Below, in pieces: positions 4,552 through 63,861 of a DNA stretch of 64,000 nucleotides. Below the pieces are notes generated by a model. The model worked only from the letters and a program-made list of their open reading frames with translations, was not told the origin of the DNA and did no database searches. The DNA is from a virus. The number at the start of each line of letters is the position of its first letter. The stretch's first letter is position 1. Location: the IMG/VR virus record IMGVR_UViG_3300045988_167652; one strand, written 5' to 3'. Position numbers and translations under genes: made by a program.

Positions 4552-4564
4552 AAATTAAAATATT

Positions 4565-19556: not shown

Positions 19557-19558
19557 TT

Positions 19559-20215: not shown

Positions 20216-20229
20216 ACAATATATTCATC

Positions 20230-22406: not shown

Positions 22407-23909
22407 ATGGCAAAATTGAATCCGTATGAAATGGTATCTTTCTCAAGTTGGAAAGGTATTTCACTTGAAAATCACTTTAATTCTTTGGCTTAGACAAGTC
22501 CACAGCTTGCTACTACTTAGATGATCAGGCTTCTTGAAGCTAAACGAAAAGGAAATTATTTGGAAGGAATTTTGAGTAAATTTCCTACTAAAGTGTTTGA
22601 TAATGATACTTATTATTACTGGCATGTAGTAGGTGCTTAGTATGTTCATGGTATCCTTGTAGAAGCACGTGATAAAGAAGGTCAACCTATTAATGTAAGT
22701 ACTTTTGTAGGAGTTAATGGCGATGAATTTTATCTGGTATTCCGTGAAGATGTATTTGCTAAAGGAGAAATGATTGTAGGAGAACTTAATGAAGAATATC
22801 CTATTCTTATTAAGGAAGCTGCTGTCATGGAAGGGAGTAATGCAGTTTATAAATGTGAACTGTATGGTAATGTTTAGGAATTTGGTATGCCTTATGAGGA
22901 GCTTGTAGAAGGAAAAAGATTTAGTGCTGAATATAATCCTGTACCTTCAGAACTTTCAAGAGAAGCTGGAGATGTAAGATTTACCAGTGCATCAAAGATG
23001 GAAAATGAATGGTCTACTCTTCGTCTTCAACATAAAGTTCCTGGTAGTGCTATGGATAGAAAATTGGCTATCGGCCTTCCTTTTCAAAAAGAAGATGGAA
23101 GTATTGTAGTAAATACTATGTGGATGCAGCATGTTGAATGGACTGTAGAAAAAACTTTCTCAGAACAGAAAAACAGATGTTTGATGTTTGGAGTATCGAA
23201 TAGAAATTCTAATGGTGAGTATGTAAATATTGATAGTCGTACAGGTATGGTTATTAAGACTGGTGATGGTCTTAGAAAACTTCAATCTTATAATGGTACT
23301 ATTTATTATACCGACTTTAGTCTTTCATTGATTGAAAAAGCTCTTTATGATATTACTGATGGCACTGATGAAATCGGAGGTGTTTTTCTTATGAAAACAG
23401 GAAAACGTGGTGCTGCTTTATTTAATCGTGCAGTAATGGATAAAATTTCAGGATGGGAGAGATTTGAACTTTCAGCTTCAGATTTGGGAATAGTAAAACG
23501 TACTAATTCAAATCTTCATGATACTGCTCTTTCTGTAGGTTATCAGTTTACTGAATATCGTGCTCCTATGGGAATTATAGTAAAACTTGAAGTTGATCCT
23601 ATGTATGATGATCCTGAAAGAAATAAACTTCGTCATCCTCTTGGAGGCCTTGCCGAATCTTATAGATTTGATATTTATAAGATGGGAAGCAAAGACAATC
23701 CTAATGTTCAGTTGGCAATAAATAAAATGCACCTTGAACAAAGAGGTTATCAAAGTGGATTCCGTAATCCTTATACAGGAAAGAATAACATTGAATTTAT
23801 GTCTACTGATGAAGATAGTGCAAAAATTCATCGTTATTGGCAAGGTGGAGTAATTTGTTATGACATGGGAATGGTTAAAAGTTTAGTTCCCTGTTGTGCA
23901 GCTGGATAA
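22407..23909 (+). CDS. Major capsid protein (HK97-fold, crAss-like)
   Basis: ATG 22407 is in frame with track ORF 22887-23909. 4 in-frame TAGs at 22491, 22518, 22638 and 22875. About 500 aa, followed by a strong hairpin. Sequence and position are as in crAss-like MCPs. Confidence 0.8.
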
Positions 23910-23982: not shown

Positions 23983-25017
23983 ATGGGAAGAAAACCTTAT
24001 AAATCAGGAGAAAATAATATGGAAATGGTAAATGAAAATTCAATGGAAGGGATTGTAGGAGTTCCTGAAGCTGAAGAAATAAAAGAAACAGTAAAACCTT
24101 CCTACACTACTAACAACTACACTTACAAAGAAGAAGAAGTAGCAAGTGGAGAAGGACTAATTAATTGTCTACAGAATAGAAAAGTAACTATTCAGTTTAT
24201 AAAAAGACAAAGAGGTAATATAACGAATAAAGACCATTTCTTTTATGGTGGGTTAGCACAAAAAGGAACATTCTTTGTATGTGTGCCTCTACTTAAAACA
24301 GGACAATTAATGAATATTCTTACCGATGATGAAAAAAATTATCTTGAATATGCGTTAGGATTACCTAAAAATTCACTCAGTATTTATGCTAAAAAAGATA
24401 ACTTCTGGCATAATAGAGGATTTACAATTGGTAAGGAAGGAATCACACTTGATTTAAGTTCTCCTATGGATTATATCTATTATAAGATAGCACAAGCAAA
24501 CGGTAATCTTATTTGTAAATCTGTAAAAGAATTACAAGATAAACCTAAAGCTACTTATATGTTTGTTATAGTAGATGATACCAGTAAGAAGGAACTTGAA
24601 ACTGTAGAAACCGATATTAATATTAAAGCATGGATTAATTTTGGTAAGATTCAAACTGATAAATACACAATGGTAACTATTATAGAACTTATGACAGGAA
24701 AACCATTTAATGTATTTCAAGATATTAACATAGTTAAGAATGCTCTTAATAATTTAATTAAGAAAGATGCTAAACTATTCCTTAACTTTGTAGAAGATAA
24801 GATGATTGGTTTTAAAACCCTTATTAAGAAAGGAATTGCACTTAACTTAATTTCAAAAAGAGATAATTATTACTACATTAAAGAAACAAATGAACCTATG
24901 TGTGGCAGTAATGAAACCCCTAATTTAAATATGGCTGCAAAATGGTTAGCTGATCCTACAAATCAAGAGTTTAAATTTAGTATTGAAGCTAAATATGAAG
25001 CTCAAAAGAAAGCATAA
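23983..25017 (+). CDS. Conserved virion-module protein of unknown function (344 aa)
   Basis: Intact TAG-free ORF downstream of the MCP gene. Confidence 0.7.
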   Translation: MGRKPYKSGENNMEMVNENSMEGIVGVPEAEEIKETVKPSYTTNNYTYKEEEVASGEGLINCLQNRKVTIQFIKRQRGNITNKDHFFYGGLAQKGTFFVCVPLLKTGQLMNILTDDEKNYLEYALGLPKNSLSIYAKKDNFWHNRGFTIGKEGITLDLSSPMDYIYYKIAQANGNLICKSVKELQDKPKATYMFVIVDDTSKKELETVETDINIKAWINFGKIQTDKYTMVTIIELMTGKPFNVFQDINIVKNALNNLIKKDAKLFLNFVEDKMIGFKTLIKKGIALNLISKRDNYYYIKETNEPMCGSNETPNLNMAAKWLADPTNQEFKFSIEAKYEAQKKA

Positions 25018-28452: not shown

Positions 28453-29136
28453 ATGACTTACGGAGAAGCTGTTTATATGATTCTTGATCAATTGAAACTA
28501 ACATCCGATGATGCTAATTTTAATGAAAATCATGTTATATTCTTACTTAATAAGTATAGAGCTTTAGCTATTAAAGAAGAATATGAAAGAACTAAAAAGG
28601 AACTTGATGAATCAAATAAACAATTATTATGTTTAGATTTAATTGAAGTTCCGGCTATTTCAGGAGAAGTATGTGAAGAAGGAACTTATCTTAGAAGCGT
28701 AAATAAACTTCCTAAAATTTTAAATCTTCATCATAATGATATTCAAGTTACTATTATGGATTATTTTAATAGTAACATATCATATGTTTCAGTAGATAGA
28801 TTTAGATGGGTAGGACATAATAAATGGCTAAAAAATATTATTTATGCTACTATAGCTCCTGATAATTATGTTTATTTAAAATCTGATAATCCACAGTTTC
28901 TTTATCTTGAAAAAATAAAATTATCAGCCATATTTGAAGACCCTGAAAAAGTACAAGATTTATTATGTGATAAAGAAAATTTTGATACTATATGTGATAT
29001 ACTCGAAAGAGATTTTCCTGTAGAAATGGCATTAGTTCCTTCCATACTTGAAAGAGTAAGAAGAGAACTTTATCAATCTTTATATAATAAAGAAGATGAA
29101 AATAATAATGCAAAAGATGATTTAGCTGAAAGATAA
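28453..29136 (+). CDS. Conserved structural-module protein (227 aa)
   Basis: Intact TAG-free ORF. Confidence 0.7.
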   Translation: MTYGEAVYMILDQLKLTSDDANFNENHVIFLLNKYRALAIKEEYERTKKELDESNKQLLCLDLIEVPAISGEVCEEGTYLRSVNKLPKILNLHHNDIQVTIMDYFNSNISYVSVDRFRWVGHNKWLKNIIYATIAPDNYVYLKSDNPQFLYLEKIKLSAIFEDPEKVQDLLCDKENFDTICDILERDFPVEMALVPSILERVRRELYQSLYNKEDENNNAKDDLAER

Positions 29137-45891: not shown

Positions 45892-48800
45892 ATGGCACAA
45901 TGTATAACCATAACTGATGAAGATTATAATAAAATAGCTTCAATCTTTAGTAAATACAATTTGAACATATCTAAACTTACTGCTTAGAAGTTAGTAAGTA
46001 TGATTATGACAGAAAAGAAAGAACTTTTTAATGGTAGTAATTTACCTTCAGAAAGAGAGTTACTTAACTTCTATTATAATCATAATGCTTTTCAAAAAGA
46101 AGTAATCCCTATTAAAGGCTACATAAAACTAAATGAGCAGAAAGAAATAATGTAGCTGAGAGATACTAATACTTATGAAGCTATCAAGTATTTAGCTACT
46201 AAAGATTCTATGTATAAACCTTTATTTGAATTACTTTCAAAAGAATCTTTTAAAGATTATTTTTCAGCTATTGATTTTAATATTATATCTCCTGAAAGAT
46301 ATTCGGGATTTTATAATAATCCAAGACATAGAGGATTTGGATATGGTAGATATGAAGCAGTTTCATCTTATTCAAAAGGAGGTAACGGAATAATTACTAT
46401 TAATGGTAATTATAGTTATTCATCTATGGAAGGAATATATCATACTTTAGCTGAAGAAATTATACATGCAGCTACTGTAAATGCCCTTAATTGGGAAGAA
46501 AACGGTGAGATTAAAAAGGGATTTGAATAGATTATTAAAGTATATAACAATTATTCAAAAGATAAATTCTTTAAGAGATTTGAAGGGGATAATTATGTAG
46601 AAGAATTTATAGCAGCCGTATTTCATCATCCTGAAATTGCACAAAGATTAAATGAAATAAGAGATGAAAAGAGTAAAACATTTTGGGAAAAAATTAAAGA
46701 TTATTTTAATAGAATCTTTAATAGTATCTTTAAAAGAATGTCTGGAGAAAAAGTAAAAGATGATTCTTTACTTGCAAGATTTGGTTCAGGATTATAGTTT
46801 TTATTTGATAATATAGAAAATAAAGGTATAGTAAAATTAACAGGTAAAACATATAATAAAAAGAAAGATGCTGCTGAAAATGCTATCGAAAGAATTAAAG
46901 AAGTTCTTTTGGAATATGGTATTAAGAATAATCAAAATCAAAATAAAGCTATTATAAAAGAAGGGGATACTTATACTGCTAATGCTCATATTATATATGA
47001 AGAATTTATTAACAGTACATTCAATAAAACTGAAAAAGGTATTTATCCTTTATCATTCTTCTTAGGTAATCTGTCAAGAAAACAAATATTTAAAAATGTA
47101 TTTGACTATGTGAATTTCCTTATAGGTAAAGAAGATGCTCTTTAGGATATATCCGAAGAACTTTCTTATGAAGAAAGATAGAATATGGCTACTGTATAGT
47201 CATTAATTTCTTCAGGAAGACTTTAGGGAGATACTCAAGATTTACTTTAGGCTTACAAATTTATTAATAGTATAAATAATTTAGATAGTATTTATACTCC
47301 TAAACAACAAAGACAAATCAGTAAGTCTATCTTTAGTATGTTTGAAAAGAAAGTTCAAGCTATTTTAGAAAGTGAGTTGGAAGAATATCAAAATAAAATA
47401 GATAATGCTGAAAAAGAAAAAGATAAAAAAAGATTTCAAAGAATCTATAATAAGTTATCTCCTGCAAATATAATTTAGTATAGAGGAGTAGACCCAATTC
47501 TTCAAAGTATTAAGAATGATTTAATATCTGCATACAGTAAGAAAATGTATCTTATTGATTCTATAGGATCATATACTACAGATAAACAAGAAAGAGTAAG
47601 ATTATACAAAGAAGCTATTTCCAAAGAAAATATTCAAGATACAGATATACCTGAATTTCTTAAAAGAATTATTCTTTACAACAAAGAAAACTATGAAAAT
47701 ATTATTAATAGCTTTGAAACATTAAAGTTATATACTTATCAAAATATTAAATACATCTATGGTGGAAATCTTAGAATAACTAATAATCCTATTAATGAAT
47801 TGGATGAACAGGGTAAAGAAGATATTGATAAAGAAACACAGACTAATGAATCTTTTAGAGTAAATTTTTTAACTGTTTCAGCTTATGATAATCTTACGGA
47901 AAAAGTAAGAAAACTATTATTTACTATTCCTGAATATCGTTTTAATGGTATTACTTATGAACCTATGATTGATATGTTAGGTTATCCTTCACATATTAAT
48001 TCAAGTATGGCTTATAAAGTAATTATTGATACAGTATATGATTCATATGATATGAATGATATGATGTTTAAACTTGAACAGTTATCAAATAGAAAAGACG
48101 GTAATTATTATTGGGTAAAATATATCATTGATAAGTTAAATAATGATTAGGATTCATAGAAACAGTTCTATAAAAACTTTAGAAAAACATTATAGAATTA
48201 TGTAGTTCAGACAGTAAAGAATGGAGTATTAATAAGTCAATCTGCTAATAAATCTATCGGTGGTAAATTCAAGGCTTTAGATATACAAAATAATATAGTT
48301 ACAGGATAGCAATTTGCTGGTGAAGATACTGTATATAATAGTGAAGGTATTATAGAAGTAGAAAAACTTGATAATATTTACTTAAAAGTAAATGAATTAT
48401 TAAGTGATTACATACAATAGGGAGAATCTGTAGAAGCATTATGGGAATTTTTAAATAATGAAGAGAATAGAAACAAACTTGAATTATGTTTTAAAGCTGT
48501 AGGAGTTTTAATAGATGTAGATCAGTTAACTTATAATCTACAACAACAATCTGATCCTTCAAAAGTATTTAGTGAAATACTTGAAAGACTTAGTCATATT
48601 ACTAATAGTTCTTCCTATTATAATAAGAATAAAGATACTTTTGAACTAAATAAATTATGGGAAAATAATGTTGGGGCTTATACAAGAATAGCTCATTTAG
48701 TTATTGATTAGGAAGCTACATCATTTGATCCTTCAGTAAGACAACAAAATAAAACTTACTATGGATATACTGAATCTTCTTATTTTGATTCAGTAATAAG

Positions 48801-51800
48801 AAATTTGAAGAATCTCTATAGAAACACTGTTGAAAATAATAAAGGTATAAACTATCATCAAAGAGCGTTAGATTATATAAGTAAACATTTCCTGAATGTT
48901 CCTTTCTTTAGTATATAGAAAAATAAAAAACAATTCATTTTATCAAGATGGATTAGAGAACTAACTGAAAACAATGAAGAAGGCCAAGATTTAAGAGATA
49001 ATTTAAAAATCAATACCATTATTTCACATAATAGGAAAGATTTTAGTGATCTGGATGATGTGGAAAGAGTATTATTATAGCTTGCTGAATATTTTAATAG
49101 TGGAAATAAAGATGAAGCTAAATATGCTAATTTTGTATTACCTGCATTAGGTGATGCCTCATAGCCAAGAAGTATTACATTTAAAAGAATAAATGATATT
49201 TAGCAGGGAGATAGATTAGTAACTACTAAAGAACAAGTAATTCAAGAATTAATTAATACGGTAATACAAGAAATTAATCGTATTAATCAGACTAATCAAA
49301 TTGAAGGATTGGATATAGCATACTATAAAAATAATGCCGCTAAATTTGTATTTTTCCCACAGCTTAATAAAACCATAAAAGAAATATTATCAAAAGAAGA
49401 AATTGAATCTTTAGGACTTACTAAACATCAAGATAAAACTGTACTTGAATTAAAAACTAAAGAGAAATCAACATTCTTAATTCAATTCTTTGATAATTAC
49501 TTAACCAAAGGATATGAAAAATGGGATAATACATAGAAAGAAAGAGGATTATATGATAGTCCTAAATTTCAAGCTATCAAACCTACTTTAGGAAACCTTG
49601 AAAATTTCTATTATAATTATGTATTTGCTTAGACATAGTTACCATAGTTACTGATAACTGATTTAGCATTTGTAAAAGACCCTATTGATTATCAAAAGAG
49701 ATTAAAAGCTACTATTAATGGTACAAGTAGTTCAAATACTTCTCCTTATTTTTCCGATGAAGTAAACGAAGTAAAGAAAGATAATGAAATGGCTGTAATT
49801 ACTCTTAGTGATGTTAAAGTAGATACTAATACTTTTCTTAATTCTACAGGAGTAATTAAAGCATTAAAGAGAAATCCTAAACTATCGGACATAGATATTA
49901 GAAATATATTAAGTAAATTTAAGGGTATTACAGCTACTGATGGACAGTCTTTTGTTACTCTTGATTTTATTAAAAAGATAATGCAGTCTGATGGTGAATG
50001 GACTGATATGATGTAGCAAAGTTATGATAATCTTGTATCAGGAAACTGGGATATGAATGACTTTGATTAGTTCTATCAGGCAAGAAAAGCTATGTATAAT
50101 GGAACTAATGTTCATGAGTTTACTTTAAAAGATGGAACTAAAACTACTATTAGAGTTCCTTCTTATCATAAATATTCGGAATATGTTTTACTTGCAATGT
50201 ATGGAGCATTTTCATAGACAGTACTTGGTGAAAACAGTTCTATGGCTGCTATTAATAAATTTATGGTTAAGAATAACATAGACTTGTGTATGTTTGAAAG
50301 TGCCGGTAAAACAGGTAATCAAAAAGTAGTGGATATTAGTGGGTTTGAAGAATTGTCAGAAGATGAAAAAGAAACATTCCTTAATGATAAAATCCTTAAA
50401 ACTAATAAAATTAAATTAGTTAGTATGGATAATTATGGTATGTAGTAGTCAAATCCTGAACATTTATATGATAACCATAGAGAACTTAGTACATAGTTAA
50501 AAAGAGCTATTATAAGCAATATTCCTGAAGATGCGGAATTTACTTTACAGAATGGTCAAAAACTAAATAAACAACAGTTTGTAGAATTATATTATGCTAC
50601 TTTATTATCGGAAAAAATAGATAATTACACAGCTAATTATGATAAACTGACTGATATGAATGCTATGTCTAAAGAATTAATATCTTAGGCACTTAGTGAT
50701 AAAGAATCTTCTATTGACGATATTAAAAAACTGACTTATAATCCTTCTACAGGAAATTTTGCTATTCCTGTAGGTGAACCTCTAAGTGGTTCAAAGTTTA
50801 TGTCTAAGTATTGTTCGTTAGTAAGAAATAAAGTTATTCCTAACAGTACTGAAGGAGGTTCAATTGTTTAGGTAAGTAATTTTGGATTTATAAAAGATAA
50901 AAACTTACAGGTAAAATATAAAGAAGGACAAGACAAATCCATTGAAAATATAGAATATATAGGATGTTATATGCCTATGTATACTAAGAAATTATTTGAA
51001 AAATATATGGATGATGAAGGTAATGTAGATATAAATAAAATGCCTGATAATGTAAAAAAATTAGTAGGTTATCGTTTACCTTTTGAAGATTTTTATTCCT
51101 TACTTCCCCTTAAAATAATTGAATTTTTACCTGAATCTTCAGGTTCTTCAATTATAATGCCTGCCGAATTACTTGCATTAACAGGTTCTGACTTTGATAT
51201 TGATAAATTATATTTAGTAGTACCTTAGTTAAATAATGAAGGAGATAGAGAAGAATATGAGATAAATATGAATGATTTACAAGGTAGTATTCTTACTATG
51301 ACTAAAGGATAGAGAAATAACCTTTTACTTGATTTAATCTATTCAAGAGCCACTCATCCTACTTCATTAGAAAGAATGCTTAATGGAGGTGAATTTGAAG
51401 ATTTAAAAACTGCTTCATTACTTACTTAGATTCGTAAAATTCCTAATATAGATAATATATTAATGAAAAAATGGAATATAAGTAAGATATCTCATTTATA
51501 TAGAAAATTATATTCTTTAGAACAGGACGAATTAAAAAGTATATTAAATGAATATAAAGAACCTGTTGATTGGTTTGATCCTGAAACATTCATTTATTTT
51601 AATAACTTAAATCATGCAGCTGCTGTGGCTATTGCTACTTTTGCTAATGCTAAAAGTAATGCTCACTTGCTTCCTGAATTTATTCCTCATGAACCTTTAA
51701 GCATTAATATGGGTAAAGAAAAGATAGATAAAGTACTATCAGAATCAAAAAACCCAAAAATGATTATTAAAACTAATGATGGAGAAGTACCTTATTGGTT

Positions 51801-54800
51801 TACTATTACTGAAACAGTGGATAAAAACGGTAAAGTAGATTCAAAAACTCATATATTCAATGAGATTAATGTACCAGAATCTTTAGACATATCCAAATAT
51901 AAAAATACAGTTCATGCACTTGCAGAATTAATTTCAGCTGCTGTAGATGCTGTAAAAGACCCTGTATTGTCATTCTTAAATCTTACTAAAGAACTAAATA
52001 TAATAGCTCCCATGCTTATTAGATTAGGTATGTCTGATAAAATGATGGGATTATTTATGACTTAGCCTGTTATTGAATATATCATTAAAAAAGCGTCCTC
52101 GAATAATAGATTAAGTATGAATCAAATCATATAGAATGTATTATATGATTTAGATTCAAAGATAGCTCAAATTGAAAGTTAGAATCCATAGAATGATAAT
52201 AGAAATGTATTTATGGATACTGAAAGTATGATTGGACATACAGGTAAAACTAAAGAATTAGAATAGTTATTAGAGAATAATAATGAATAGGAAAATAATA
52301 TATACCAAGAAGATAATTTAATAAATTCTTCGGATAATTTGTTCTTCTTAAAGAAATAGTTGAATGTATTATATGTATTTAAAAATATATATGCTAAAGC
52401 CAAAACATTAAATGAATATGCTGTAACACATAAACCCGATTCAAAAAGCTCTATGGCTAGAGGTTCTTTATTTGATAATATAGCTAAAAAAGTAAGAAAA
52501 GAAAACTTAGTAAAAGAGTTAGGTAAACACTTTGCTAATATACCTATATTACAAGATACATTTAATAAAGATATAATTACACCACCCTCAAAAATTGCAG
52601 GTGATAATTATGGTAAATAGATGAAAAAGTATAAAGAATAGATGCTTAAATACTTTATGAATCAAGATTTACCACTTGTACAAATGGATTATACTTTAGG
52701 TATTCTTGCGCCTATTTACTTTAATATAAATAGATTTCCACAGCTTAGAAAGCAATTTTCTTATATAGTAGATGAAATTAGTAAACAATCTAAAAATAAT
52801 CTTCTTTCAAGACAGTATGCTGAACAGGTTTATAAAATGTATTATACATATTTACTTAGTGAACCTACTAATGGATTACTTGGAGGAAAAGAAATTAAAC
52901 CTGCATTCTTAGATAAAACTTTAAATACTTATGAAGATAAAAGACAGTATTATTTAAATGGATTTGTAAAGAATCTACAAGAATATAAAAGAGCTAAAAT
53001 AAATAAACTTCCAGCTGATAGAAGAAATGCAAGAAATTCATCTTTTATTAAATTATTAGCTCCTTATAATAAAGGTATAATATTAAAAGGATAGGGTACT
53101 GCAAGAGTAGATAAAAGAGATATGCTTAATGCTGATTGGGCAAATCTTATGAAAAGTGATGTTGAATTTGAAAGAAATTTAGCAAGGGATATATTTATCT
53201 ATGAATTATTTAAGAATGGAGCTGGTTATACTCCTAATGGTATATTACAATATGCTCCTATGGAAGTTATCAGTAGTATAGAAGGATATACTGATATAGC
53301 TTTAGATAATTCCATACTCGATAACATAGAAAATGATGATACTTACGAAGAGTTCTTAAATATATATGTAAGAAATAATTTAAGGACATTTGCTTAGGTT
53401 ATTCCTGAACATGAAAATCATTATTTTAAAGATGCAAACGGATATAAACCTACCTTAAACACTGAAAATTTATCCACTACTTTTTATAATAGTGAATATA
53501 AAACCAAATATATTTAGATAGGTTAGGGAAATAATGCCGTATTCTATAAACTAAATTATGATATTGATCCTTTTACAGTAGATATTATAGATAGAGGGTA
53601 TGAAAAGATCACTCCTTTAAATATGTAGTATCAATATGGTAATCCTAATGCAGTAGCTATTGATAATACATTAAAACAAGCTGGATAGAGTTCTTTAAGT
53701 ACTATGAATGAAGAAGAATTATCTATGCTTGCAGGTATGAATGATCCTTTTGAAGATGCTGATATGATGGAATAGATGGCTGCTATGCAGGCTATGGAAG
53801 ATAAATTATTTAGAGAATAGAATAATAAACAGTAGGAAAATACAGAAGATACTAATATTAAAGAAGTAGAAGAAGTATCTAAATAGATAGATAATATCTT
53901 AGGTAATACTACTAAAGTAGTATCTACATTAGAAGAAATTGAAAAATTAAAAGAAATAAAAACAAAGAAAGTAACTTTAGAGATACAACCATTTATACAG
54001 GATGGTAAGGTATTCTTTAAAATTATTCCTGTACAAAGAGGTATATAGAACTCTGTATATTTTAATGTAAGATTAGGAGAACTTCAAAATGGTATTAGAG
54101 CAGCTGATAAATTAATGGAATTTGCTTCTCAGAATGATATTTCTGTAGAACAACAATTACAAAAGGATTTAAATGCTAATGGTACTGTTACCTTTATTAA
54201 TGATACTTCAAGTAAGATAAAAGCTATTGTTTAGATAGCTAAAGAAAGTAATCTCGAACAGTTTATTAATAGGTTAAGCGAAGAATTATCTCATGCTGCT
54301 ATAGCCTTTTCAAGTAATGAAGCCTATATTAATGAAATTATTTCACCTCTTCAAAATGATATTGAAATGGTTAAAGAAATATTAGGAGATGAATATGATA
54401 ATTATTATTAGATTTATAATGGTAATGAAAGATATTTAGCTCTTGAAGCATTAGGAAAAATAGTGGGTGAAGCTACAGGAGGATTAATATCTCAAGGAAC
54501 AAATATCAAAGGAAGTGTAATAGGTAGAATAATGTCTATTATAAAAGATAAATTCAGAGGATTAAATGAAGAACAATTAGTTATTATTTCTTAGATATTT
54601 AAGGATGATTCTCCTATTGTAAGAGATATGATTAATAATTTATTAGGAGAAATTAATGGTACACTTGCTTCAGAAGTTATGAAAGATATTCCTATGTAGA
54701 TGTATTAGCTTAATTAGAAAATAAGTCTACAAGAATAGAAACATAATATAGCTTTAAAAGCTATTAATGATTTAATTGATGCCGAAATAAAACGAATTAA

Positions 54801-57603
54801 TATTATTAAAGTTACAAAATCAAGTGATATTTAGGATACTTAGGAATTAAACAGGCTTATTAAAGCAAGAAACTCTTAGGAAACTGTTAAAGGTATTCAT
54901 ACAAGAATAAAAGAACTTAATAATGTTCTTAGAGGGCATTTATACAGATTAAAAGAGTTAATATAGAATCAGGATGAAAGGGATGAAATAAGTGCTAAAT
55001 CTTTAAGAAATATGAGAGATACTTTAATAGCCTATCAAAAACAAGTAGATATTATAAGAGAATTTGATATAGAACTTGAAGGATTAAGTGATGAAGAACA
55101 AATAGAAATAAATAATGAATTAAAAGAAATTATAGCTGATTGTGAAGAAGTTTTGAAACGTTCTTTTAATTACTGGAAAAAGATATCCAAAGCTAAATTT
55201 ATGTCTTTTGTAGGTAAAATAGTTCCTGAAGGAGTAGTAAGAATGATGAATAAAATAGATGGTTCTACTAATACTTTAGAAGATTATGTATTTACAGCTA
55301 ATAGGGATATTTCTTTTTATGATAGATGGTTAAGAGCAGCTGGTGATAGTAGAGATTTTGTAATTAGATTATATGATGATATATTAAAAAGAGCTTAGAT
55401 TAACAGAGTTCATAAATCTTAGGAATATAAAAGAAAGATAACAGCTTTACAAATAGAACTTGAACAATCTACAGGTAGTTCAGATACTTCATGGATGTAT
55501 GAAAAGAATGCTAAAGGAGAAATAATAGGATTTATTAGAGAACTTGATTATACTAAATATGAAAAAGAAAGAAAACAGGCTATATTAGATATTTATAGTA
55601 ATACAGATGATCCTAAAACAGCATCGGATTTAATTAATAAATGGGTAGTAGAACATACTGAATTGGATGAAAATAATATACAAAAACCTAAAAGATCGCT
55701 TTATGGTAATCCTATATTCGATAATTTATCCGAAGGATAGAAAAAGTATTATAAATCCATTATAACCCTTAAAAAATTAATGGATGCAACTATGAAACTT
55801 GAACCTATTTAGTATTATAAACCTATTTACATTTCAAACACTATGACATAGAGATTAAAGAATACTAAGAGTGTTTAGGATGTAAAAGATATAATGAAGA
55901 GCTGGTATGATACTAATATAGGAATAAGAAAAGATGACACTGATTATAATAAAACAGTTGCCGTAATAAAAGATTTTGAAGGAAATGTGGTACAAACATT
56001 ACCTAAATTCTTTACTTCTCCTTTAGAAAATCTTAAAGATGTTTCTACCGATGTTACTTCAGCTATGATAGCCTATGCTGATACAGCAGTTAATTTTGAA
56101 GTAATGGAAGAAGCTGTGGGATAGATGGAACTTGGTAGAATTGTTCTTAGAGACAGAAAGATTTCAGAAACAAAAGATGATAAAGAATTAGTAAATAAGA
56201 TTAAACTTTCAGGTTATAATATCATTCAAAAAGTATTTAAGAAAACATCCAAATCTAATTTTGAAGCAAGATTAGATGACTTTATGGAAATGAATGTTTA
56301 TAATCATTATTATAAGGATGAAGGTAAGGTAGGTTAGTTATTAAATACTTTAGGTACAGTTACAGCTATTAATGGTTTAGGAATTAATGCTATTGCAGGT
56401 ATATCTAACTTATTTACTGGTGGAGCAATGTTTAATATTGAAGCTCTTAGTAATAATCATTTTAAACCTAAACATGGTATAAAAGCAGATAATATTTTCT
56501 TTAAAAATTCATTTGCTTTAATAGGAGATGCCGGCAAAAGAGTAAAAACATCAAAAATAGCTTTATTCCTTGAACATTTTGATGTTTATCAGGATTATAC
56601 CGAAAACATAAAAAATAGTAATGTAGGAACTAAGAATTGGTTACTTAGAAATATTGGATTAGATTCTATGTTTATCTATAATAAATTAGGTGAAACTTGG
56701 TTATAGGCAAGAGTACCTTTAGCTTTAGCAGTAGCTACTGAATTAATAGATAAAAATGGAAATAAAATAAGTCTTTGGGATGCTTTAGAAGTAGTAGAAA
56801 CTAAGAATGATGAAGGTAAAGTTATTTCTTCAAAACTTCAATTTAAAGATGAATATGAAGGATTAGATGGAAAAAAGCCTGATGAAATTATAGCTGAAGT
56901 TATGAGAAAAAGTAATAAAATCAATAATAATTTGAATGGTATTTATCATAAACAAGATATATATGCAGCTTAGAAATATTCAGTTGTAAGAATGGGATTT
57001 ATGTTTAGAAAATTCATATTACCCGCTCTTGAATATAGATATAAAGGACAGACTTATAACTTTGACTTAAATAAAACTACTGAAGGATTTTATCATACTA
57101 TATGGAGACTTAGAAAAGACATTCTAAAGAATAGAACAAATTTACTTGTATTTTATAATAGTCTTGAAGATTATGAAAAGGCTAATATAAATAAAGCATC
57201 TATAGAAGTATTACAAGTATTTATGATATGGTTAGCTATAGGACTTATAGGTAAAATTGATGGTGATGATGATGATGATAAAGCTTATTTAGCAAGAATA
57301 ACCGAATTACAATTAAGAAGACTTTATACTGAAACTTCAGTGTTTACTCCTTCTACAGGAATGATTAATGAAGGTCAAAGAATACTTAAATCACCCGCTG
57401 CTTCAGTTAATACATTAGATAATATGTTAGGATTACTTGAGCTTCTTGATCCAAGAAGTTATACTACTGAACTTAAATCAGGGAGGTATAAAAGACATTC
57501 AAGAGCTTATAGAGCTATTGACAGAAATTTACCTTTTAAACGTCATATATATAACATAGTAAATCCTGAATTATTATTACCATTCTATAAACAAGAATAT
57601 TAA
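45892..57603 (+). CDS. Giant 3903-codon ORF containing the crAss-type virion RNA polymerase domain
   Basis: 17 track fragments (46210 ... 56992) all share the frame of ATG 45892. I hand-checked gaps 46530-46909, 48150-49309 and 53397-55012 and found only TAG. Catalytic-type motif GSDFDIDKLY (DFDID at 51190-51204). TAA at 57601. Confidence 0.8.
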
Positions 57604-57634
57604 TCAAAGCAGACACAAACGATCAAATTTTTTA

Positions 57635-57672
57635 GGGAAGATAGTTTTATATTCTATCTTCCCTTTTATTTT
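57635..57672 (+). terminator. Rho-independent terminator between the convergent blocks
   Basis: GGGAAGATAG (57635-57644) pairs with CTATCTTCCC (57654-57663), followed by TTTTATTTT. The site is 31 nt after the giant ORF stop and 10 nt from the end of the leftward gene. Confidence 0.7.
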
Positions 57673-57673
57673 A

Positions 57674-58312
57674 TTATTTTGTGGTTTTAATAGGATACAC
57701 ATATAAACTAACAATTCTTCCATCAATAATATTTTTTGTATATTCAAAGAATGGAAAATCTTTAATAATAGTGTCTACTACTTCAATAATATAATTATTA
57801 TTTAGTGATATTTCAATACAATCATCCCCATCAACTATGAAGTTATTATATATTCTTTTTACAATATCTTCATACATTTCTTGTTTTACTTTCTTTTCAT
57901 TATCTATTAGAGATAATTTTATATCACTATAGTTTTCCCAGAAATTTGTAAGTTTTTCCTTACACTTATCAAAATCACTTTCTTCTTCTTCATTTTCTTC
58001 ACCTTCATTTTTAAATACTGAATTTTGAGCATATTCAGCAGCTCTAACCATAGCTTCAATATCTATGAAAGCTTTATTAAGAGAGTCTTCTACCTCTTCT
58101 TTTCTACTTTTTCCTATAGTAGAAACATAAGTTTCTGCTAAGTATATTTTTGTTTTAACTTCAGCTATTAAGGAATCTATATTATTTAATAAATCAGTTT
58201 TATTTTTATCGTTTCTATTACAATTTTTTATATCTTCCGACATTTTTTCAAGTTTACTGATTATGTTATTAAATTTAGTGTAAATTCTTTCTGATAATAT
58301 TTTCTTGTCCAT
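57674..58312 (-). CDS. Hypothetical protein (212 aa)
   Basis: Intact standard-code ORF with a helical, acidic N-terminal half and a beta-rich C-terminus. Ends in TAA. Confidence 0.65.
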   Translation of the reverse strand: MDKKILSERIYTKFNNIISKLEKMSEDIKNCNRNDKNKTDLLNNIDSLIAEVKTKIYLAETYVSTIGKSRKEEVEDSLNKAFIDIEAMVRAAEYAQNSVFKNEGEENEEEESDFDKCKEKLTNFWENYSDIKLSLIDNEKKVKQEMYEDIVKRIYNNFIVDGDDCIEISLNNNYIIEVVDTIIKDFPFFEYTKNIIDGRIVSLYVYPIKTTK

Positions 58313-58319
58313 AAAATTT

Positions 58320-59150
58320 TTAATTTAATTCTTGTATTATATTATGAAACACTGATTTAAAAAATAATATTACGTTAGAAGGCATTAATATGTTGCTTTT
58401 ATATTTAATATTGTTGTTTATTATTTTAATATAGTCATTTAAAACTTCTTTTATTCCTATTAAATTAAATTCTTCATAATTCAAACTGATAAAATTATTA
58501 TGATATGTGTTTGTAATATAACCAAGAAATCTTACATTCTTTTTTATAATGTTATATTCTTCTAAAGGTAAATTTATATTATTACTATTCCAAACTAATT
58601 TAGGGTGATAGTTATAATGTTCAAGTTCTTTATATAATTCATATATTTCAAATGCTCTATTTTCAAATGTAGTATCAAGTCCGTTTTTAATTACCCATTT
58701 ATATAAATAGTTTACTATTATTTTTAAATCTGCAATATGTTTACTTGAATTTGATTTTGTGTTTATACAATCTTCTTTAGCTATAATAATATCAAGTGGA
58801 TCGGCTATTTTGTATGTATTTCTCAGATATTTTATATTTTTTATTTTGACATTATCAGTATTAAAAATATCTATTAAAAATCCTGTTTCTTTATGTTTTA
58901 GTTTATATAGTTTAAATTTATAATCATATTCTTTTTCATCAGATTCATCAGATTCATCAGGATTTAATAATTCAAATATTTCATTATCATACCCAAATTC
59001 TCCACTACGTACAAAATCCAAATCATGTATAGGTCTTTTTAAATCTATTCCCAACATATTAAAGACAGTACTACCAGTTAATACAGTTCCAGGAATGTTA
59101 TTAAATACATCATTTATTACCTTTAATTTTATATCATCTATCTTAATCAT
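58320..59150 (-). CDS. Nucleotidyltransferase-fold (Pol-beta superfamily) protein
   Basis: N-terminal pattern LTGSTVFNMLGIDLKRPIHDLDF (G-S-x15-D-x-D, coordinates 59016-59075), with a later acidic strand FLIDIF. Confidence 0.55.
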   Translation of the reverse strand: MIKIDDIKLKVINDVFNNIPGTVLTGSTVFNMLGIDLKRPIHDLDFVRSGEFGYDNEIFELLNPDESDESDEKEYDYKFKLYKLKHKETGFLIDIFNTDNVKIKNIKYLRNTYKIADPLDIIIAKEDCINTKSNSSKHIADLKIIVNYLYKWVIKNGLDTTFENRAFEIYELYKELEHYNYHPKLVWNSNNINLPLEEYNIIKKNVRFLGYITNTYHNNFISLNYEEFNLIGIKEVLNDYIKIINNNIKYKSNILMPSNVILFFKSVFHNIIQELN

Positions 59151-59649
59151 TTATATATAAGATTAAAGAAGTAAATAAACTCATAAATGCCCACATTTCT
59201 AAATAAAACATCCAACTCTTCCTATTTAATAAATATAATATAAGAAACATTAAAGCAATATTAAGGGGAACATACCAATATTTTATAGCTACTAAATAAA
59301 TCCAAAGAATAGCAAATATCATACATATAATAGCCGAAATAAAATGTATTTTCTTATTTATAGTTTTAAAATAAGGCGCTGTACCTACAAAAGCTAATGC
59401 ACTTGCAGCTATAAAAGGTATAAATTGTAATATTTTAGGAGTATGTTCTAACCATACAGGCATTATACTAAAACATATAACATAACAAAATATAGTAAAG
59501 GCATAAGACATATTCCATTTAATATCTTTATATCCTTTTTCAAGTAGATAAAAAGAATCTGAAATACTTTTAGGTATTCCATATATAATACATATTGAAG
59601 AGATATAGAGAACAAAAAAACTAATACCAAAATAATATAATAACTCCAT
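59143..59649 (-). CDS. Polytopic membrane protein (168 aa, about 5 TM segments)
   Basis: Successive hydrophobic segments in the translation. Its stop overlaps the start of the downstream NTase gene (58320-59150) by 8 nt. Confidence 0.65.
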   Translation of the reverse strand: MELLYYFGISFFVLYISSICIIYGIPKSISDSFYLLEKGYKDIKWNMSYAFTIFCYVICFSIMPVWLEHTPKILQFIPFIAASALAFVGTAPYFKTINKKIHFISAIICMIFAILWIYLVAIKYWYVPLNIALMFLILYLLNRKSWMFYLEMWAFMSLFTSLILYIND

Positions 59650-59675
59650 AATTTTAAATTTTTCTTTTTAATATT

Positions 59676-60272
59676 TTATTTAATCTTTCTTTTATATACT
59701 TTTATGAGTTTATCAAAAGCTTTTAACCTTGATTCTTCATCATTATTATCCCACCAACAACCTCCTTCTTTATATTTAGCATTAAGAAAATCTTTATTAA
59801 ATTCGGGAATAATAAAAGGTATAGTCAAAAAACTATGTATAGTATAAGGAAAAGATTTTGTAATACATATACACATATATGAGGCTATTCCATCTTCACA
59901 TATCTTCTTAGCTTTTATAAGAGTATTAAGTATTAATTCATTTGTTATTTTATAATTCTTTTTATATATCTTACATTCATAAATACTAATAAGCTGATCT
60001 AATGCTTCTTTTCTACTTTGTATATCTTTCCTATCCCACCAAATACTATTTGCATTTCTTTTTACTCCTGTAAGAAATTCTGACGTAAATTCAGGAATAA
60101 TTTCAGGAATATTACTACATAATATAGGTGTAGACCTTATAGATAAATAATTAACAATAGCAGTACCAATAGCATCACATAGATAAATTTTACTACCTGA
60201 ATATATGCTATCATAAGCATTTAATAATATATTTAATATATCCTTATTAGTTAAATTATATTCTGTTTTCAT
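59676..60272 (-). CDS. Hypothetical protein with an internally duplicated domain (paralog 1)
   Basis: Two repeats of ...C....IPEF..[ED]FL......WWD....SR..A.D.LI..Y. Confidence 0.65.
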   Translation of the reverse strand: MKTEYNLTNKDILNILLNAYDSIYSGSKIYLCDAIGTAIVNYLSIRSTPILCSNIPEIIPEFTSEFLTGVKRNANSIWWDRKDIQSRKEALDQLISIYECKIYKKNYKITNELILNTLIKAKKICEDGIASYMCICITKSFPYTIHSFLTIPFIIPEFNKDFLNAKYKEGGCWWDNNDEESRLKAFDKLIKVYKRKIK

Positions 60273-60293
60273 ATTAATTTAAATATAGACTTA

Positions 60294-60977
60294 TTAAACA
60301 ACACAGTAAAAATAAAATACTTTTCTGTGAATTATTTTATTCAATATTCTCTTAACGAATAATCTTATTTTATTCAATATTCTATAATTATAAACTTTTT
60401 CTTCATATATTTCTATTAGCTTATCAAAAACTATTATTCCTTCTTCCTTATTTTTTAATTTTGACAGGTGTATTTTATTATTGTACTTTGAATTAAAAAT
60501 TTCTTCACTACATTCTGGAATAAGTTTATATAATAAACTATCAGACATATAAATACAAGATAAAGCATGTTTAAGATTTAAATGAACATTTTGATAATAA
60601 TTCCTTATATATAATTCTTTTGCTCTTTTAATGAGTTCAAGGGTTTTTTTATTCTTTGGTTTTTTATCTCTTTTAAAAATTTTAAGTGTATATATGTCTA
60701 TAAGTTTAGTTAATACTTCTAATCTACTTGTTTTATCATTTATATCCCACCGTTCTTTATTGGTACTTATTTTACGTCCTACAAGAAATTTAGAGTTAAA
60801 TTCTGGTATATAATTTCTTATACCTAAATAAGTAACAAAATTAGAAGTACATATATACAAAGAATAACTAAGAGCCTCGCATAATAATATACTTCTATCA
60901 TAATAAACTTTTTTATAAGCTATATATAGAACTTCAATAATATCTTTATCAGATAATTTTATATTTTCATGATTCAT
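60294..60977 (-). CDS. Hypothetical protein with an internally duplicated domain (paralog 2)
   Basis: Same IPEF...WD...SR...L..LI.IY architecture as 59676-60272. The second repeat is degenerate. Confidence 0.65.
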   Translation of the reverse strand: MNHENIKLSDKDIIEVLYIAYKKVYYDRSILLCEALSYSLYICTSNFVTYLGIRNYIPEFNSKFLVGRKISTNKERWDINDKTSRLEVLTKLIDIYTLKIFKRDKKPKNKKTLELIKRAKELYIRNYYQNVHLNLKHALSCIYMSDSLLYKLIPECSEEIFNSKYNNKIHLSKLKNKEEGIIVFDKLIEIYEEKVYNYRILNKIRLFVKRILNKIIHRKVFYFYCVV

Positions 60978-61173
60978 AGTTAGGTATTAAATATAATTCT
61001 TTATTTATTTTAAAAGGACTTTCATCACTTATTTTTACTAATATAGAATTAATAATATTGTGATATTCTGATGGAATAACGAGAGGAAAATATTTATTAT
61101 TATATTTAACAGTAATAATATAATCTCCCTCTTCTATTTTATCAAGTTCATTTTGATTTTTATTTTTGTCCAT
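60967..61173 (-). CDS. Hypothetical small protein (68 aa)
   Basis: Intact ORF whose end overlaps the start of the next gene by 11 nt. Confidence 0.5.
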   Translation of the reverse strand: MDKNKNQNELDKIEEGDYIITVKYNNKYFPLVIPSEYHNIINSILVKISDESPFKINKELYLIPNYES

Positions 61174-61195
61174 AATTTATTGTTATAAATAAAAT

Positions 61196-61220
61196 AGGGA
61201 AGATTTATATTATCTTCCCT
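61196..61220 (-). terminator. Rho-independent terminator after the MazG-ending operon
   Basis: AGGGAAGAT (61196-61204) pairs with ATCTTCCCT (61212-61220). On the minus strand a T-rich run follows the hairpin. Confidence 0.6.
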
Positions 61221-61236
61221 AAATTAATATATTATT

Positions 61237-61803
61237 TCAACATGTTTTACCATGTTTATATCCTCTATGTGTATTATATTCCATCTTTTGATAAACATGC
61301 CAATCAATTGGAATGTTCCAATGTTTTACTAATAAATCAAGATAATCTAATGCCACACAAATTGAATGTGTATTATCATTTCCCCTTGAAATAATTCTTG
61401 TTACTTCAAAACATTCTTCTAAAAATGATTTAAAGTTTGTTTTTACAATGTTAGTTTTATTTGATGGATCATCAAAATCAAGATTTATAGCTCCTGCATA
61501 ATCATATAATCTGATATATACATCAGCTATTTCATCTTCAACAGTGTTTTTAATATTCTTTTTAAAAGATTCTTGTAGCCCTAAAAGTTTATTATCTCTT
61601 TGAAAGGCATCATAATCAGATTTATGATTATTTCTATATGCTTCTACAGCTTCACAAATCTCACTAATAACAAGCATCATACTATGTTCATAAGGATGTT
61701 GTACTTCCCAAAATCCTTTTTTTACAGCATTACTGTGAGCAAGTTTTTTATATTGATTTCTTGTTAATTTACCTGTTTTAAATACTGCTTCTTTAATATC
61801 CAT
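61237..61803 (-). CDS. mazG: MazG-like all-alpha nucleoside triphosphate pyrophosphohydrolase
   Basis: Pattern GFWE...MLVISEICEAVEAYR...EDEIADVYIRLYD...KMEYNTHRGYKHGK is typical of the MazG/NTP-PPase family. Confidence 0.7.
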   Translation of the reverse strand: MDIKEAVFKTGKLTRNQYKKLAHSNAVKKGFWEVQHPYEHSMMLVISEICEAVEAYRNNHKSDYDAFQRDNKLLGLQESFKKNIKNTVEDEIADVYIRLYDYAGAINLDFDDPSNKTNIVKTNFKSFLEECFEVTRIISRGNDNTHSICVALDYLDLLVKHWNIPIDWHVYQKMEYNTHRGYKHGKTC

Positions 61804-61806
61804 ATT

Positions 61807-62247
61807 TTATTCACAATTCATTAATGCGTTATACATTCTATCTATTGCTTCTTTAGGGACTTTCCTATCTCTTCCTTCTATATTTTTCATAGCTTTTTCA
61901 GGTGTACACATAAGAAAACAGTACTCAATTCTATAACCATTATCTAACGCTAACTTTTCAAGTTTCCTTCTTGTTTTTATATAACAATTAGTGTCATCAA
62001 TGATTATAGTATTATCTCTTAATATAGCTTCTTGAATGGCTCTTAATTCAAGTTGTTTTACTAAAAATTCTTCTTCTTTAGTATATCTGTAATTAGGTTT
62101 GGTTTCCCTTATTTTATCTCTTGAAATATATTCATACTGTGGATTATTTTCAAGGATTTTATTAGCTGTAGTAGTCTTACCGCTACCTGGAATACCTACC
62201 ATAACAATAAAGGTTCTTTCAAGATTATTATATTTACTTATATCCAT
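61807..62247 (-). CDS. P-loop kinase (AAA_33 or polynucleotide/nucleotide-kinase-like)
   Basis: Walker A GIPGSGKTT near the N-terminus. I trimmed the start to the Met at 62247, one nt after the upstream stop. The track ORF extends to 62328. Confidence 0.65.
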   Translation of the reverse strand: MDISKYNNLERTFIVMVGIPGSGKTTTANKILENNPQYEYISRDKIRETKPNYRYTKEEEFLVKQLELRAIQEAILRDNTIIIDDTNCYIKTRRKLEKLALDNGYRIEYCFLMCTPEKAMKNIEGRDRKVPKEAIDRMYNALMNCE

Positions 62248-62248
62248 A

Positions 62249-63163
62249 TCATAAATCTTTAAACATATCAATAATATTATTTTTAATATCTTTTCTTTCG
62301 TATTTTCTTGTAGTAGAATTTTTAGCATACTTACCTTCTACTAAATCAATATACATAGTAAATTCCCCTTCATCTCCCATGTAGTAAGAATTAAATGTAT
62401 ATTCATCCAATCTTTTTCTTAATTCAAGAGTTTCAATAGCTAAATTATCTGTTGCTACTACTTTGAAAGTTCTAAAGATTTGATCAATATTATTAACCAA
62501 CATCTTTCTTTTTTCATTTAACCATAATCCATTTTTATGGTTATATTCAATTCCTCTACCAAATAATTTATTACCTAATATAAGTAATTTATCTGGTAGA
62601 ATATCTTTAAACTCAATTAAGTCTTTATAATTTACTATTCCTTCAATAACATGTAAAACAATATTATCTGTAGATATTCCATTCTTTATAAGTATATTTA
62701 GAATGTTTTCTACATTTCTAAATTCTTTAGGATTATTAGCTGATATTCCCAAACCATGAATTAATTTTTTATATAGGAGAGAAATAAGCAAGTCAAATTC
62801 TTTTATAGAATTATGAATAGTCATATTGCATATAATATTTTTACTATTTAACTTTCCAAGAATTTTTTTTAAATTAGGATGACTAAGAGCATTTCCCCCG
62901 CCTAAGGCAATTTCTGTACCTTCTTTTAAAGTATCTAAAAACTCATAATTAAAGTTTGCATGTTTACCTTTTATAGATGAGTTTTCATGACACATAGGAC
63001 ATCCTACTTCACAATAATCAGTTATCTTCATATCTATACTTTCAGGAAATTCAGGAATAAATTTATCTTCTTTAGTCATTCTGATTTTAGTTCCGTCAGA
63101 ATATATTTTTACAATGTAATTTCCATTAGTATATGATTGTAATAATTTTATATTATTATTCAT
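62249..63163 (-). CDS. Radical SAM enzyme (activase-like CxxxCxxCH motif)
   Basis: C-E-V-G-C-P-M-C-H-E at 62984-63013 (CxxxCxxC core at 62990-63013), verified on the DNA. Downstream GGGNALSHP resembles the SAM-binding GGE motif. Confidence 0.7.
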   Translation of the reverse strand: MNNNIKLLQSYTNGNYIVKIYSDGTKIRMTKEDKFIPEFPESIDMKITDYCEVGCPMCHENSSIKGKHANFNYEFLDTLKEGTEIALGGGNALSHPNLKKILGKLNSKNIICNMTIHNSIKEFDLLISLLYKKLIHGLGISANNPKEFRNVENILNILIKNGISTDNIVLHVIEGIVNYKDLIEFKDILPDKLLILGNKLFGRGIEYNHKNGLWLNEKRKMLVNNIDQIFRTFKVVATDNLAIETLELRKRLDEYTFNSYYMGDEGEFTMYIDLVEGKYAKNSTTRKYERKDIKNNIIDMFKDL

Positions 63164-63404
63164 TACTTTCTAATCTTTTTCTTGTAGCTATTTCTTTATT
63201 TAAATACCAAACAGCCTTTTCTAAATCTTCAATCACCTTATCTTTATCTTTTTTATCTGCTCTTAATATATATTTAATAGCATTTCCTCTACAGAATCCT
63301 AAAAGTGATATAACTCCTGTATAATCTTCTATCACATCAATTACTTCAGTTCTTCCTGAAGTATAATGTTTAGGATGATTTACATTGTCTTTAATTTCCT
63401 CCAT
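63156..63404 (-). CDS. DUF3310/SaV-like phage protein
   Basis: Pattern HPKHY...E.IDVIE......F..GNAIKYILR...K.....DLEKA.WYL matches my recollection of the DUF3310 family. Confidence 0.6.
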   Translation of the reverse strand: MEEIKDNVNHPKHYTSGRTEVIDVIEDYTGVISLLGFCRGNAIKYILRADKKDKDKVIEDLEKAVWYLNKEIATRKRLESNE

Positions 63405-63861
63405 AATAAATAATATGCTTAGCTTTTCCTACCCTTTCTTTAGCTACTTCTTCTACATCATACTCATCATTATCATTTCCAGTAATAATAAAACTATCAT
63501 TTAGTAGAAACTTTTTAAAATCTTTTCTACTATCCATTATTTCTAATAGTTTACTTTTATCATTACTATGATCCATTCCAAAATTATCATATGATTTTCC
63601 ATAAAATATCTTTGTTTCAGGAAGAACCTCTTTTATTGCTTCTTTAAATTCTTCTTCTAAATCTAAAGACACACATAAAGAATATAAATAATTAGCTTTA
63701 GCTTCAATACCTGTTATTATTTCATATTCCCAACCATAATCTATATAAGTTAGATACAGTTTTTTGGGAGATTTCTTAGTAGAAGAACCACTAATATAGC
63801 AAAGACAATGTGTACTTGAACTATTGGTTTCAAATATACTTCTTCTTACAGAAATTTTCAT
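63391..63861 (-). CDS. Hypothetical protein with N-terminal FETNSSSTH motif
   Basis: Intact 156-aa ORF. Its stop overlaps the downstream DUF3310 gene by 14 nt, and its start overlaps the upstream stop (ATGA). Confidence 0.6.
   Translation of the reverse strand: MKISVRRSIFETNSSSTHCLCYISGSSTKKSPKKLYLTYIDYGWEYEIITGIEAKANYLYSLCVSLDLEEEFKEAIKEVLPETKIFYGKSYDNFGMDHSNDKSKLLEIMDSRKDFKKFLLNDSFIITGNDNDEYDVEEVAKERVGKAKHIIYYGGN

Follow-up and report, generated by a model that had tools for sequence, protein, structure and literature searches.

This report concerns the use of the codon TAG in a 64,000-nucleotide stretch (hereafter the window) of the virus record IMGVR_UViG_3300045988_167652, which by its sequence is a crAss-like gut phage (Crassvirales, nearest to Steigviridae). 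Eleven leftward open reading frames (ORFs) at 57674-63861 hold no in-frame TAG, and the rightward block that converges on them carries TAG as a sense codon in most of its genes. The best explanation, which we regard as probable, is that these ORFs belong to the TAG-free leftward block of a phage that is split between the standard code and genetic code 15 (TAG read as glutamine), where the leftward block could be translated before any suppressor tRNA is present and the virion and lysis genes would depend on the suppressor. This interpretation is compatible with all that was tested and is partly supported, its timing part being drawn by analogy from homologous modules. The TAG-free replication and accessory block is real, and it is also well described and already known for such phages; the window adds no new principle because the pattern, the glutamine assignment and the gating model have all been published.

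In-frame TAG in the two blocks

The minus strand at 57674-63861 holds exactly 11 ORFs, all with ATG starts and abutting or overlapping each other, and the standard-code coding density of the segment is 98%. The sequence-only reading had described these ORFs as intact with eight TAA and three TGA stops, and this was confirmed on re-reading each of them: the TGA stops lie at 60967, 61237 and 62249, and in-frame TAG and in-frame TGA are both zero. The single long overlap, of 80 nt (62249-62328), vanishes with the internal start at 62247 of the public gene call, which is the probable true start of ORF 8 and gives a product of 146 amino acids (aa).

The rightward block was said to use TAG heavily, and it does so. 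Plus-strand ORFs cover 25.1 kb in the standard code and 55.7 kb when TAG is read as sense, and other stop-codon reassignments gave no comparably clean gain in plus-strand ORFs. The plus block (2445-57603) carries 326 in-frame TAGs in 17,945 codons (1.8%), spread over 27 of its 34 ORFs. The 2,052 codons of the 11 leftward ORFs would hold about 37 TAGs at this density, and none is observed (P ~5e-17). Counted against glutamine-type codons only, TAG makes up 0 of 19 in the 11 ORFs vs 42% in the plus block (P = 3e-5).

Base composition cannot explain this code split, because codon usage is near-identical in the leftward and rightward blocks (relative synonymous codon usage, RSCU, r = 0.99), the coding-strand GC skew is 0.22 vs 0.23, and off-frame TAG is equal. 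In frames 2 and 3 TAG occupies 3.5% and 2.2% of codon positions in the 11 ORFs vs 3.7% and 1.8% in the plus block; a general depletion of TAG was rejected because the off-frame triplet is as frequent in leftward as in rightward genes.

The 11 ORFs are as follows, all on the minus strand.

57674-58312, minus: ORF 1, 212 aa, TAA stop, last gene of the leftward block (97-98% aa identity in relatives)
58320-59150, minus: ORF 2, 276 aa, TAA stop, lineage-restricted and fast-evolving (dN/dS, the ratio of nonsynonymous to synonymous substitution rates, ~0.7)
59143-59649, minus: ORF 3, 168 aa, hydrophobic in translation, TAA stop
59676-60272, minus: ORF 4, 198 aa, paralogue of ORF 5 (31% identity), TAA stop
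60294-60977, minus: ORF 5, 227 aa, paralogue of ORF 4, TAA stop
60967-61173, minus: ORF 6, 68 aa, TGA stop, conserved in relatives
61237-61803, minus: ORF 7, 188 aa, predicted nucleotide pyrophosphatase, TGA stop (phrog_9236, annotated pyrophosphatase, E = 1.5e-38)
61807-62328, minus: ORF 8, predicted P-loop kinase of polynucleotide-kinase / AAA_33 / KTI12-PSTK type, TAA stop (PF13671, E = 7e-20; phrog_505)
62249-63163, minus: ORF 9, 304 aa, predicted radical-SAM-type Fe-S enzyme, TGA stop (phrog_16999, E = 2e-43)
63156-63404, minus: ORF 10, 82 aa, DUF3310, TAA stop (PF11753 on the public gene call)
63391-63861, minus: ORF 11, 156 aa, TAA stop (phrog_28997)

The window corresponds to positions 1312-65311 of a 91,598-bp ENA contig. 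The genome is circular (~91.6 kb), since the leftward block of relatives opens with counterparts of the small minus-strand ORFs near window 820-1053. As a circle it consists of two opposed blocks, a rightward one at window 2229-57603 and a leftward one that runs from near 1053 across the origin of the record and ends at 57674, so that the code boundary is sharp (57603/57674). The leftward block is ~35 kb long and the 11 ORFs are its 3'-distal 6.2 kb. Its gene order goes from small early-type ORFs through an SF2 helicase, a primase-like protein, ThiF, a PD-(D/E)XK nuclease, DNA polymerase A and ThyX to the 11 accessory genes. It is thus a replication and nucleotide-metabolism module, and the rightward block is a virion, lysis-like and virion-RNA-polymerase module headed by a tRNA(CUA).

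The remainder of the leftward block was surveyed in three sources, since in-frame TAGs there at the density of the plus block would have spoken against the sequence-only reading. On the same contig, the 10 kb beyond the window (L001) hold 12 further genes, including DNA polymerase A, ThyX, ThiF, a PD-(D/E)XK protein and a glucosaminidase-domain protein, with no in-frame TAG and with TAA or TGA stops only. For the rest of the block further upstream a near-identical strain (L014) serves as proxy, being 99.9% identical in the overlap with an identical helicase; each of its 18 called genes in that part lacks in-frame TAG and ends in TAA or TGA. In all, 41 leftward genes in and outside the window were examined and every one is TAG-free; their codons number 5,259 in this genome (23 genes) and 3,860 in the near-identical strain, ~9,100 in total, with zero in-frame TAGs. 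On this point the sequence-only reading is not refuted. The stops in both blocks are all TAA or TGA. For ~1 kb of it, which makes up most of a gene of 386 aa, only relatives provide the sequence. Two independent relatives, IMG/VR 3300006333_000007 (relA) and IMG/VR 3300011990_000001 (relB), are almost entirely TAG-free in the leftward block over its full 35 kb. The exceptions in the survey are two: one small ORF with a TAG four codons before its end, and a CAG-to-TAG change in relB that is described below.

Glutamine codons are also scarcer in the leftward block (1.8% overall and 0.9% in the 11 ORFs; glutamine plus TAG is 4.3% in the plus block), and the CAG share of CAA+CAG is 15% there vs 26% in the plus block. 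Selection against codons that a single mutation turns into TAG may be the cause, or the proteins may just differ in composition.

The features of the rightward block and of the start of the leftward block are given below.

820-1053, minus: first small ORF of the leftward block, 77 aa, with matches in relatives
2229-2301, plus: tRNA-Met (CAT), adjoining the suppressor tRNA (ARAGORN, Rfam)
2341-2413, plus: predicted suppressor tRNA with a CTA anticodon, heading the rightward block (ARAGORN; Rfam tRNA, 68 bits)
2445-57603, plus: TAG-recoded rightward block including giant virion proteins, ORFs intact with TAG as sense
5573-7915, plus: large terminase (TerL), 13 TAGs (phrog_6681, 2.3e-90)
8019-10361, plus: portal, 18 TAGs (phrog_6547, 3.4e-120)
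19541-20980, plus: lysis-like cassette of a DUF6549 membrane protein, a weak spanin-like PHROG match and DUF5675, with 3, 1 and 3 TAGs
22407-23909, plus: major capsid protein (MCP), 4 TAGs (phrog_11589, 1.9e-72)
45892-57603, plus: putative virion RNA polymerase (RNAP) gene, 3,903 aa, 76 in-frame TAGs, convergent on the leftward block (DFDID at residue 1767)

The virion-RNAP assignment of the 3,903-aa ORF is a DFDxD motif match only. The plus block also encodes tail-fibre-like proteins and five very large proteins, of which the 3,903-aa one is the last. The portal has thousands of Crassvirales homologues, which share ~52% identity beyond the phage's own species cluster, and by MCP the closest named phages are the Steigviridae cr111_1, DAC15 and IAS virus at 47-50% identity. 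From the hosts of the nearest isolates, the host is probably a member of Bacteroidota. The contigs stem from human-gut metagenomes. Public databases already contain proteins of the lineage under the label Crassvirales, and blastn of the region against the INPHARED phages returned no match.

The identity of the amino acid at TAG was read from alignments. In 24 portal homologues (~52% identity), 9-10 of the 18 TAG sites of the portal align with glutamine, seven of them with invariant glutamine, against a background of 5.5% glutamine. Where TAG sites of this genome are changed in relA or relB the codon found is CAG or CAA in 25 of 39 cases, and conversely 13 of the 14 TAGs of the relatives stand opposite CAA or CAG here. 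The rightward block is, on these alignments, in genetic code 15 (TAG = glutamine) with a phage-encoded amber suppressor. The tRNA(CUA) is 100% identical in a related contig; it has by eye a U1-A72 pair, which is a lead only as to charging. TAG makes up a fairly uniform 40-50% of glutamine-type codons in most plus-block genes.

Near the suppressor tRNA the block is TAG-poor: the first genes that follow it (2812-5032) have one TAG in 17 glutamine-type codons (P = 1e-3). The very first gene after the tRNA(CUA), at 2445-2798, has three TAGs, and a relative has single TAGs in two genes of 2812-5032.

Explanations of the split

The preferred explanation would work in the following way. After infection of a Bacteroidota host that uses the standard code, the leftward block would be translated by the unmodified host machinery. 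It reads the same with or without a suppressor, because it has no in-frame TAG and its stops are TAA and TGA; for the 11 genes the earlier statement that they need no suppressor therefore holds. The phage tRNA(CUA) would then accumulate and make the TAG-containing virion, lysis and RNAP genes translatable. Purifying selection would remove TAG from genes that are needed before the suppressor accumulates, interchange between CAG or CAA and TAG would be free in genes translated after that point, and TAA and TGA stops throughout would keep termination independent of RF1.

The order of expression is taken from two better-studied phages. In crAss001, RNA sequencing placed the replication and nucleotide-metabolism genes in the 'middle' class, switched on before the structural genes, and in phi14:2 the whole replication module is 'early', being transcribed by the injected RNAP before the capsid module. 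By analogy with these modules we infer that the leftward block is expressed before the virion module in the present phage too.

Several observations weigh against so simple a picture. Three genes of the virion block (21158-22342, 23983-25017 and 28453-29136) are TAG-free in all three genomes compared, and together with the MCP gene they hold only 4 TAGs in 44 glutamine-type codons vs the block average of 42% (P = 1.7e-6), a TAG-poverty that is kept in the two relatives. Some late genes may thus be under gene-specific selection against TAG. The TAG-free block itself includes a peptidoglycan hydrolase, the glucosaminidase-domain protein named above. In crAss001 two of the virion-RNAP genes, gp49 and gp50, belong to the 'middle' class; since the large genes of the virion-RNAP region, the DFDxD gene among them, are heavily recoded here, TAG-rich does not simply equal late. 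The tRNA(CUA), being co-oriented with the recoded block and at its head, may appear with the late transcripts and not before them. In the relB ortholog of ORF 4 (L013 8855-9451) a CAG has become TAG at codon 93, so that either a dispensable gene was freshly knocked out or the distal block is still translated with the suppressor active. Finally, the lack of TAG stops in the 11 ORFs is not beyond chance. The two relatives have TAG stops in 2 of 50 and in 5-6 of 45 leftward ORFs (4-11%), and at such rates the probability of finding none in 11 genes is 0.27-0.64. The sequence-only reading had TAG avoided completely; this stands for TAG as a sense codon, and the claim that the missing TAG stops are meaningful was rejected, as relatives do use such stops. 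Its model of early genes in the host code and late genes in the recoded block is the published one, and it needs qualifying on the points just given.

Early-region genes of relatives with a TAG stop are found at L007 5639-5959, 6464-6652, 6875-8131 and 9697-9861, at L008 5962-6336 and at L014 7992-8168. They mostly have a TAA 0-5 codons downstream, with one immediate TAG-TAA tandem.

The strongest alternative is that the split is a passive by-product, in which TAG drifts into genes wherever the suppressor is present and is purged elsewhere, so that the split records the order of expression and transcription does the gating. We take this as possible, if somewhat unlikely. TAG and CAG or CAA interchange freely between strains that are ~95% identical, and the even share of TAG among the glutamine-type codons of most plus-block genes points the same way. 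The position of the tRNA(CUA) at the head of the block it serves leaves little independent timing to come from it, and in crAss001 and phi14:2 it is promoters and polymerases that set the temporal classes. Against drift, Borges et al. report preferential recoding of the lysis genes of crAss-like phages, and in the present genome TAG takes its largest share of glutamine-type codons (3 of 4) in the DUF5675 gene of the lysis-like cassette. The conserved TAG-free late genes also argue for gene-specific selection and not for pure drift.

A graded reading would be suggested by the three abundant-looking virion genes that stay TAG-free across strains beside the TAG-poor capsid gene, the CAG-to-TAG change in relB and the back-up TAA after early TAG stops in relatives. 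According to it TAG is a per-gene dial of dosage or efficiency, suppression is partial, and translation of the distal leftward block goes on in the presence of an active suppressor. We consider this unlikely.

Another alternative makes TAG a throttle on translation efficiency that acts on dosage and not on timing, with genes that need maximal or reliable output, the leftward block included, avoiding the codon. The low count in MCP and its three TAG-free neighbours is what such a throttle would produce, and the TAG-poor head of the plus block (P = 1e-3) fits it as well. Dosage does not predict, however, that ~44 leftward genes of very different likely abundance, among them tiny ORFs and dispensable accessory genes, should all be TAG-free, and the throttle seems to us rather improbable.

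Recent acquisition of the leftward block, or of its distal accessory part, from a standard-code phage would leave it without TAG for lack of time. Replication modules are exchanged among crAss-like phages, as published switches between DNA polymerases A and B show, the leftward GC is slightly lower (0.24 vs 0.27), and ORF 2 is restricted to this lineage. Yet the two blocks agree in codon usage and in coding-strand skew, on which grounds this origin was rejected, and the 35-kb block has stayed collinear and TAG-free across 5-20% protein divergence while the plus block swapped dozens of TAG, CAG and CAA codons; we judge it very improbable. A strand-specific mutation bias that makes TAG on one strand only has next to no chance of being right: the GC skew does change sign exactly at the convergence point, but the idea is refuted by the equal skew of the coding strands (0.22 vs 0.23) and by the equality of off-frame TAG, frame-1 TAG alone being different.

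Relation to known phages

crAss-like genomes with standard-code replication machinery and alternative-code structural and lysis genes, together with the gating model, were put forward by Borges 2021 (bioRxiv 10.1101/2021.08.26.457843). Split-code crAss-like phages with TAG-to-glutamine recoding are published by Yutin 2021 (PMC7886860), and metaproteomic evidence for code 15, with glutamine at TAG, comes from two other crAss-like phages in Peters 2022 (PMC9523058). A gene finder made for genomes that are dual-coded in blocks, Mgcod, also exists.

The present phage shares with the published code-15 crAss-like phages a genome of ~92 kb in two opposed blocks, TAG in the TerL, portal, MCP and RNAP genes, TAG corresponding to glutamine, a tRNA(CUA) and replication genes in the standard code, with the lysis-like cassette recoded here. 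It differs in that its lineage is only ~50% identical (portal, MCP) to the well-sampled groups. The TAG-free late genes beside MCP, the glucosaminidase gene in the standard-code block and the early TAG stops of relatives are not found in the passages of Yutin, Borges and Peters drawn on here. Lak megaphages, Agate, Garnet and others treated by Borges et al. likewise have recoded structural and lysis genes, incomplete use of the alternative code and suppressor tRNAs; they are unrelated lineages, several of them recode TGA to tryptophan, and their modules may be scattered instead of forming two clean blocks.

phiCrAss001 and other Steigviridae (DAC15, IAS virus and cr111_1) have the same module order and the same giant virion RNAP genes as this phage, and for crAss001 in-frame TAG recoding is not known to have been reported. 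phi14:2, a distant relative from a marine host, also has an RNAP with the DFDxD motif, which is packaged in its virion, and its middle and late genes are on the opposite strand from the early ones. To our knowledge recoding has not been reported for phi14:2 either.

Split coding matters in gut phages because it may set when lysis occurs and virions are made, and because standard gene calling fails on it. The window is a clean textbook case, with both blocks, the suppressor tRNA and the convergence point within 64 kb. Its practical value is that of a well-delimited test case, in which the TAG-free late genes and the CAG-to-TAG changes and TAG stops of the relatives could be used to probe how complete suppression is.

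The leftward genes and non-coding elements

All 11 ORFs are kept in the same order in relA and relB, at 78-98% aa identity and with dN/dS mostly 0.1-0.7. They are real genes, because order and sequence are conserved in both relatives and dN/dS is mostly well below 1. For the six ORFs below the hairpin at 61195-61221 the label 'accessory' is fair, because dN/dS reaches ~0.7 (ORF 2), relB carries a TAA nonsense codon in one gene and a TAG in another, and relA has an apparent frameshift in a third: besides the TAG in ORF 4, the relB ortholog of ORF 1 (L013 10806-11444) has a GAA-to-TAA change at codon 26, and the relA ortholog of ORF 5 matches in two different frames, which is an apparent frameshift. 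These ORFs 1-6 gave no usable match in Pfam, PHROGs or NCBIfam.

ORF 2 has homologues in only 12 clusters at 76-100% identity, all on contigs of this phage lineage. It has no match in Pfam, PHROG, NCBIfam or (by profile) PDB sequences, and one public record names a homologue aminoglycoside-2''-adenylyltransferase-like. The AlphaFold2 models of ORF 2 (predicted local distance difference test, pLDDT, 40) and ORF 4 (pLDDT 60) were too poor for use. ORF 3 is probably a multi-pass membrane protein, as judged from its hydrophobic translation. The paralogous ORF 4 and ORF 5 each contain, by eye, two copies of the motif IPEF...WWD...R...LI..Y, which also occurs in an early-region gene of a relative (L008 5962-6339) and for which no family was found.

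Among the genes upstream of the hairpin, ORF 8 has a TIGR03574 match that is below the cutoff of that model. ORF 9 carries a CxxxCxxC motif (DYCEVGCPMC in translation) and matches PF04055 weakly. Nothing was found for ORF 7 and ORF 9 among PDB sequences. The glucosaminidase-domain protein of the leftward block (294 aa, PF01832, E = 1.4e-27) lies on the minus strand at L001 8097-8981, ~0.9 kb past the end of the window.

Two hairpins were located near and within the 11-gene segment.

57634-57664, no strand: hairpin with a 10-bp stem flanked on each side by T-runs, within the 70 nt that separate the convergent blocks (from the sequence)
61195-61221, minus: terminator-like hairpin with a T-run after it; the gap that holds it is the only sizeable one between genes of the 11-gene segment

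The first is probably a bidirectional terminator. Both share the 9-nt stem AGGGAAGAT, which occurs nowhere else in the window; the stem has 4 matches in the window vs 0.9 expected. A sigma-70 scan gave 53 sites vs 60 expected, with a model that does not cover promoters of the Bacteroidota type. Rfam searches of the whole window (gathering threshold) and of 1-2700 (E-value threshold) returned only the two tRNAs, and no HDV-like (hepatitis delta virus-like) or theta ribozyme was found in them beside the suppressor tRNA.

Between the first leftward ORF and the tRNA pair lies a divergent region of 1.2 kb without ORFs (1054-2228), which has no Rfam match and may serve as an origin, contain promoters or encode a non-coding RNA. 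Its part at 1440-1850 folds better than shuffled sequences on both strands (z = -3.6 and -4.3), and in a relative a hairpin at ~1471-1506 stays paired although both of its sides have changed. Conservation is nearly 100% over the 370 nt that directly precede the tRNAs (1860-2228), and 1054-1850 is visibly more divergent, with several indels. Further into the early part of the leftward block, the near-identical strain has long stretches that carry no called gene between small early-type ORFs (L014 329-1562, 3501-4306 and 6372-7341), and these stretches recall the abundant early non-coding transcripts of phi14:2.

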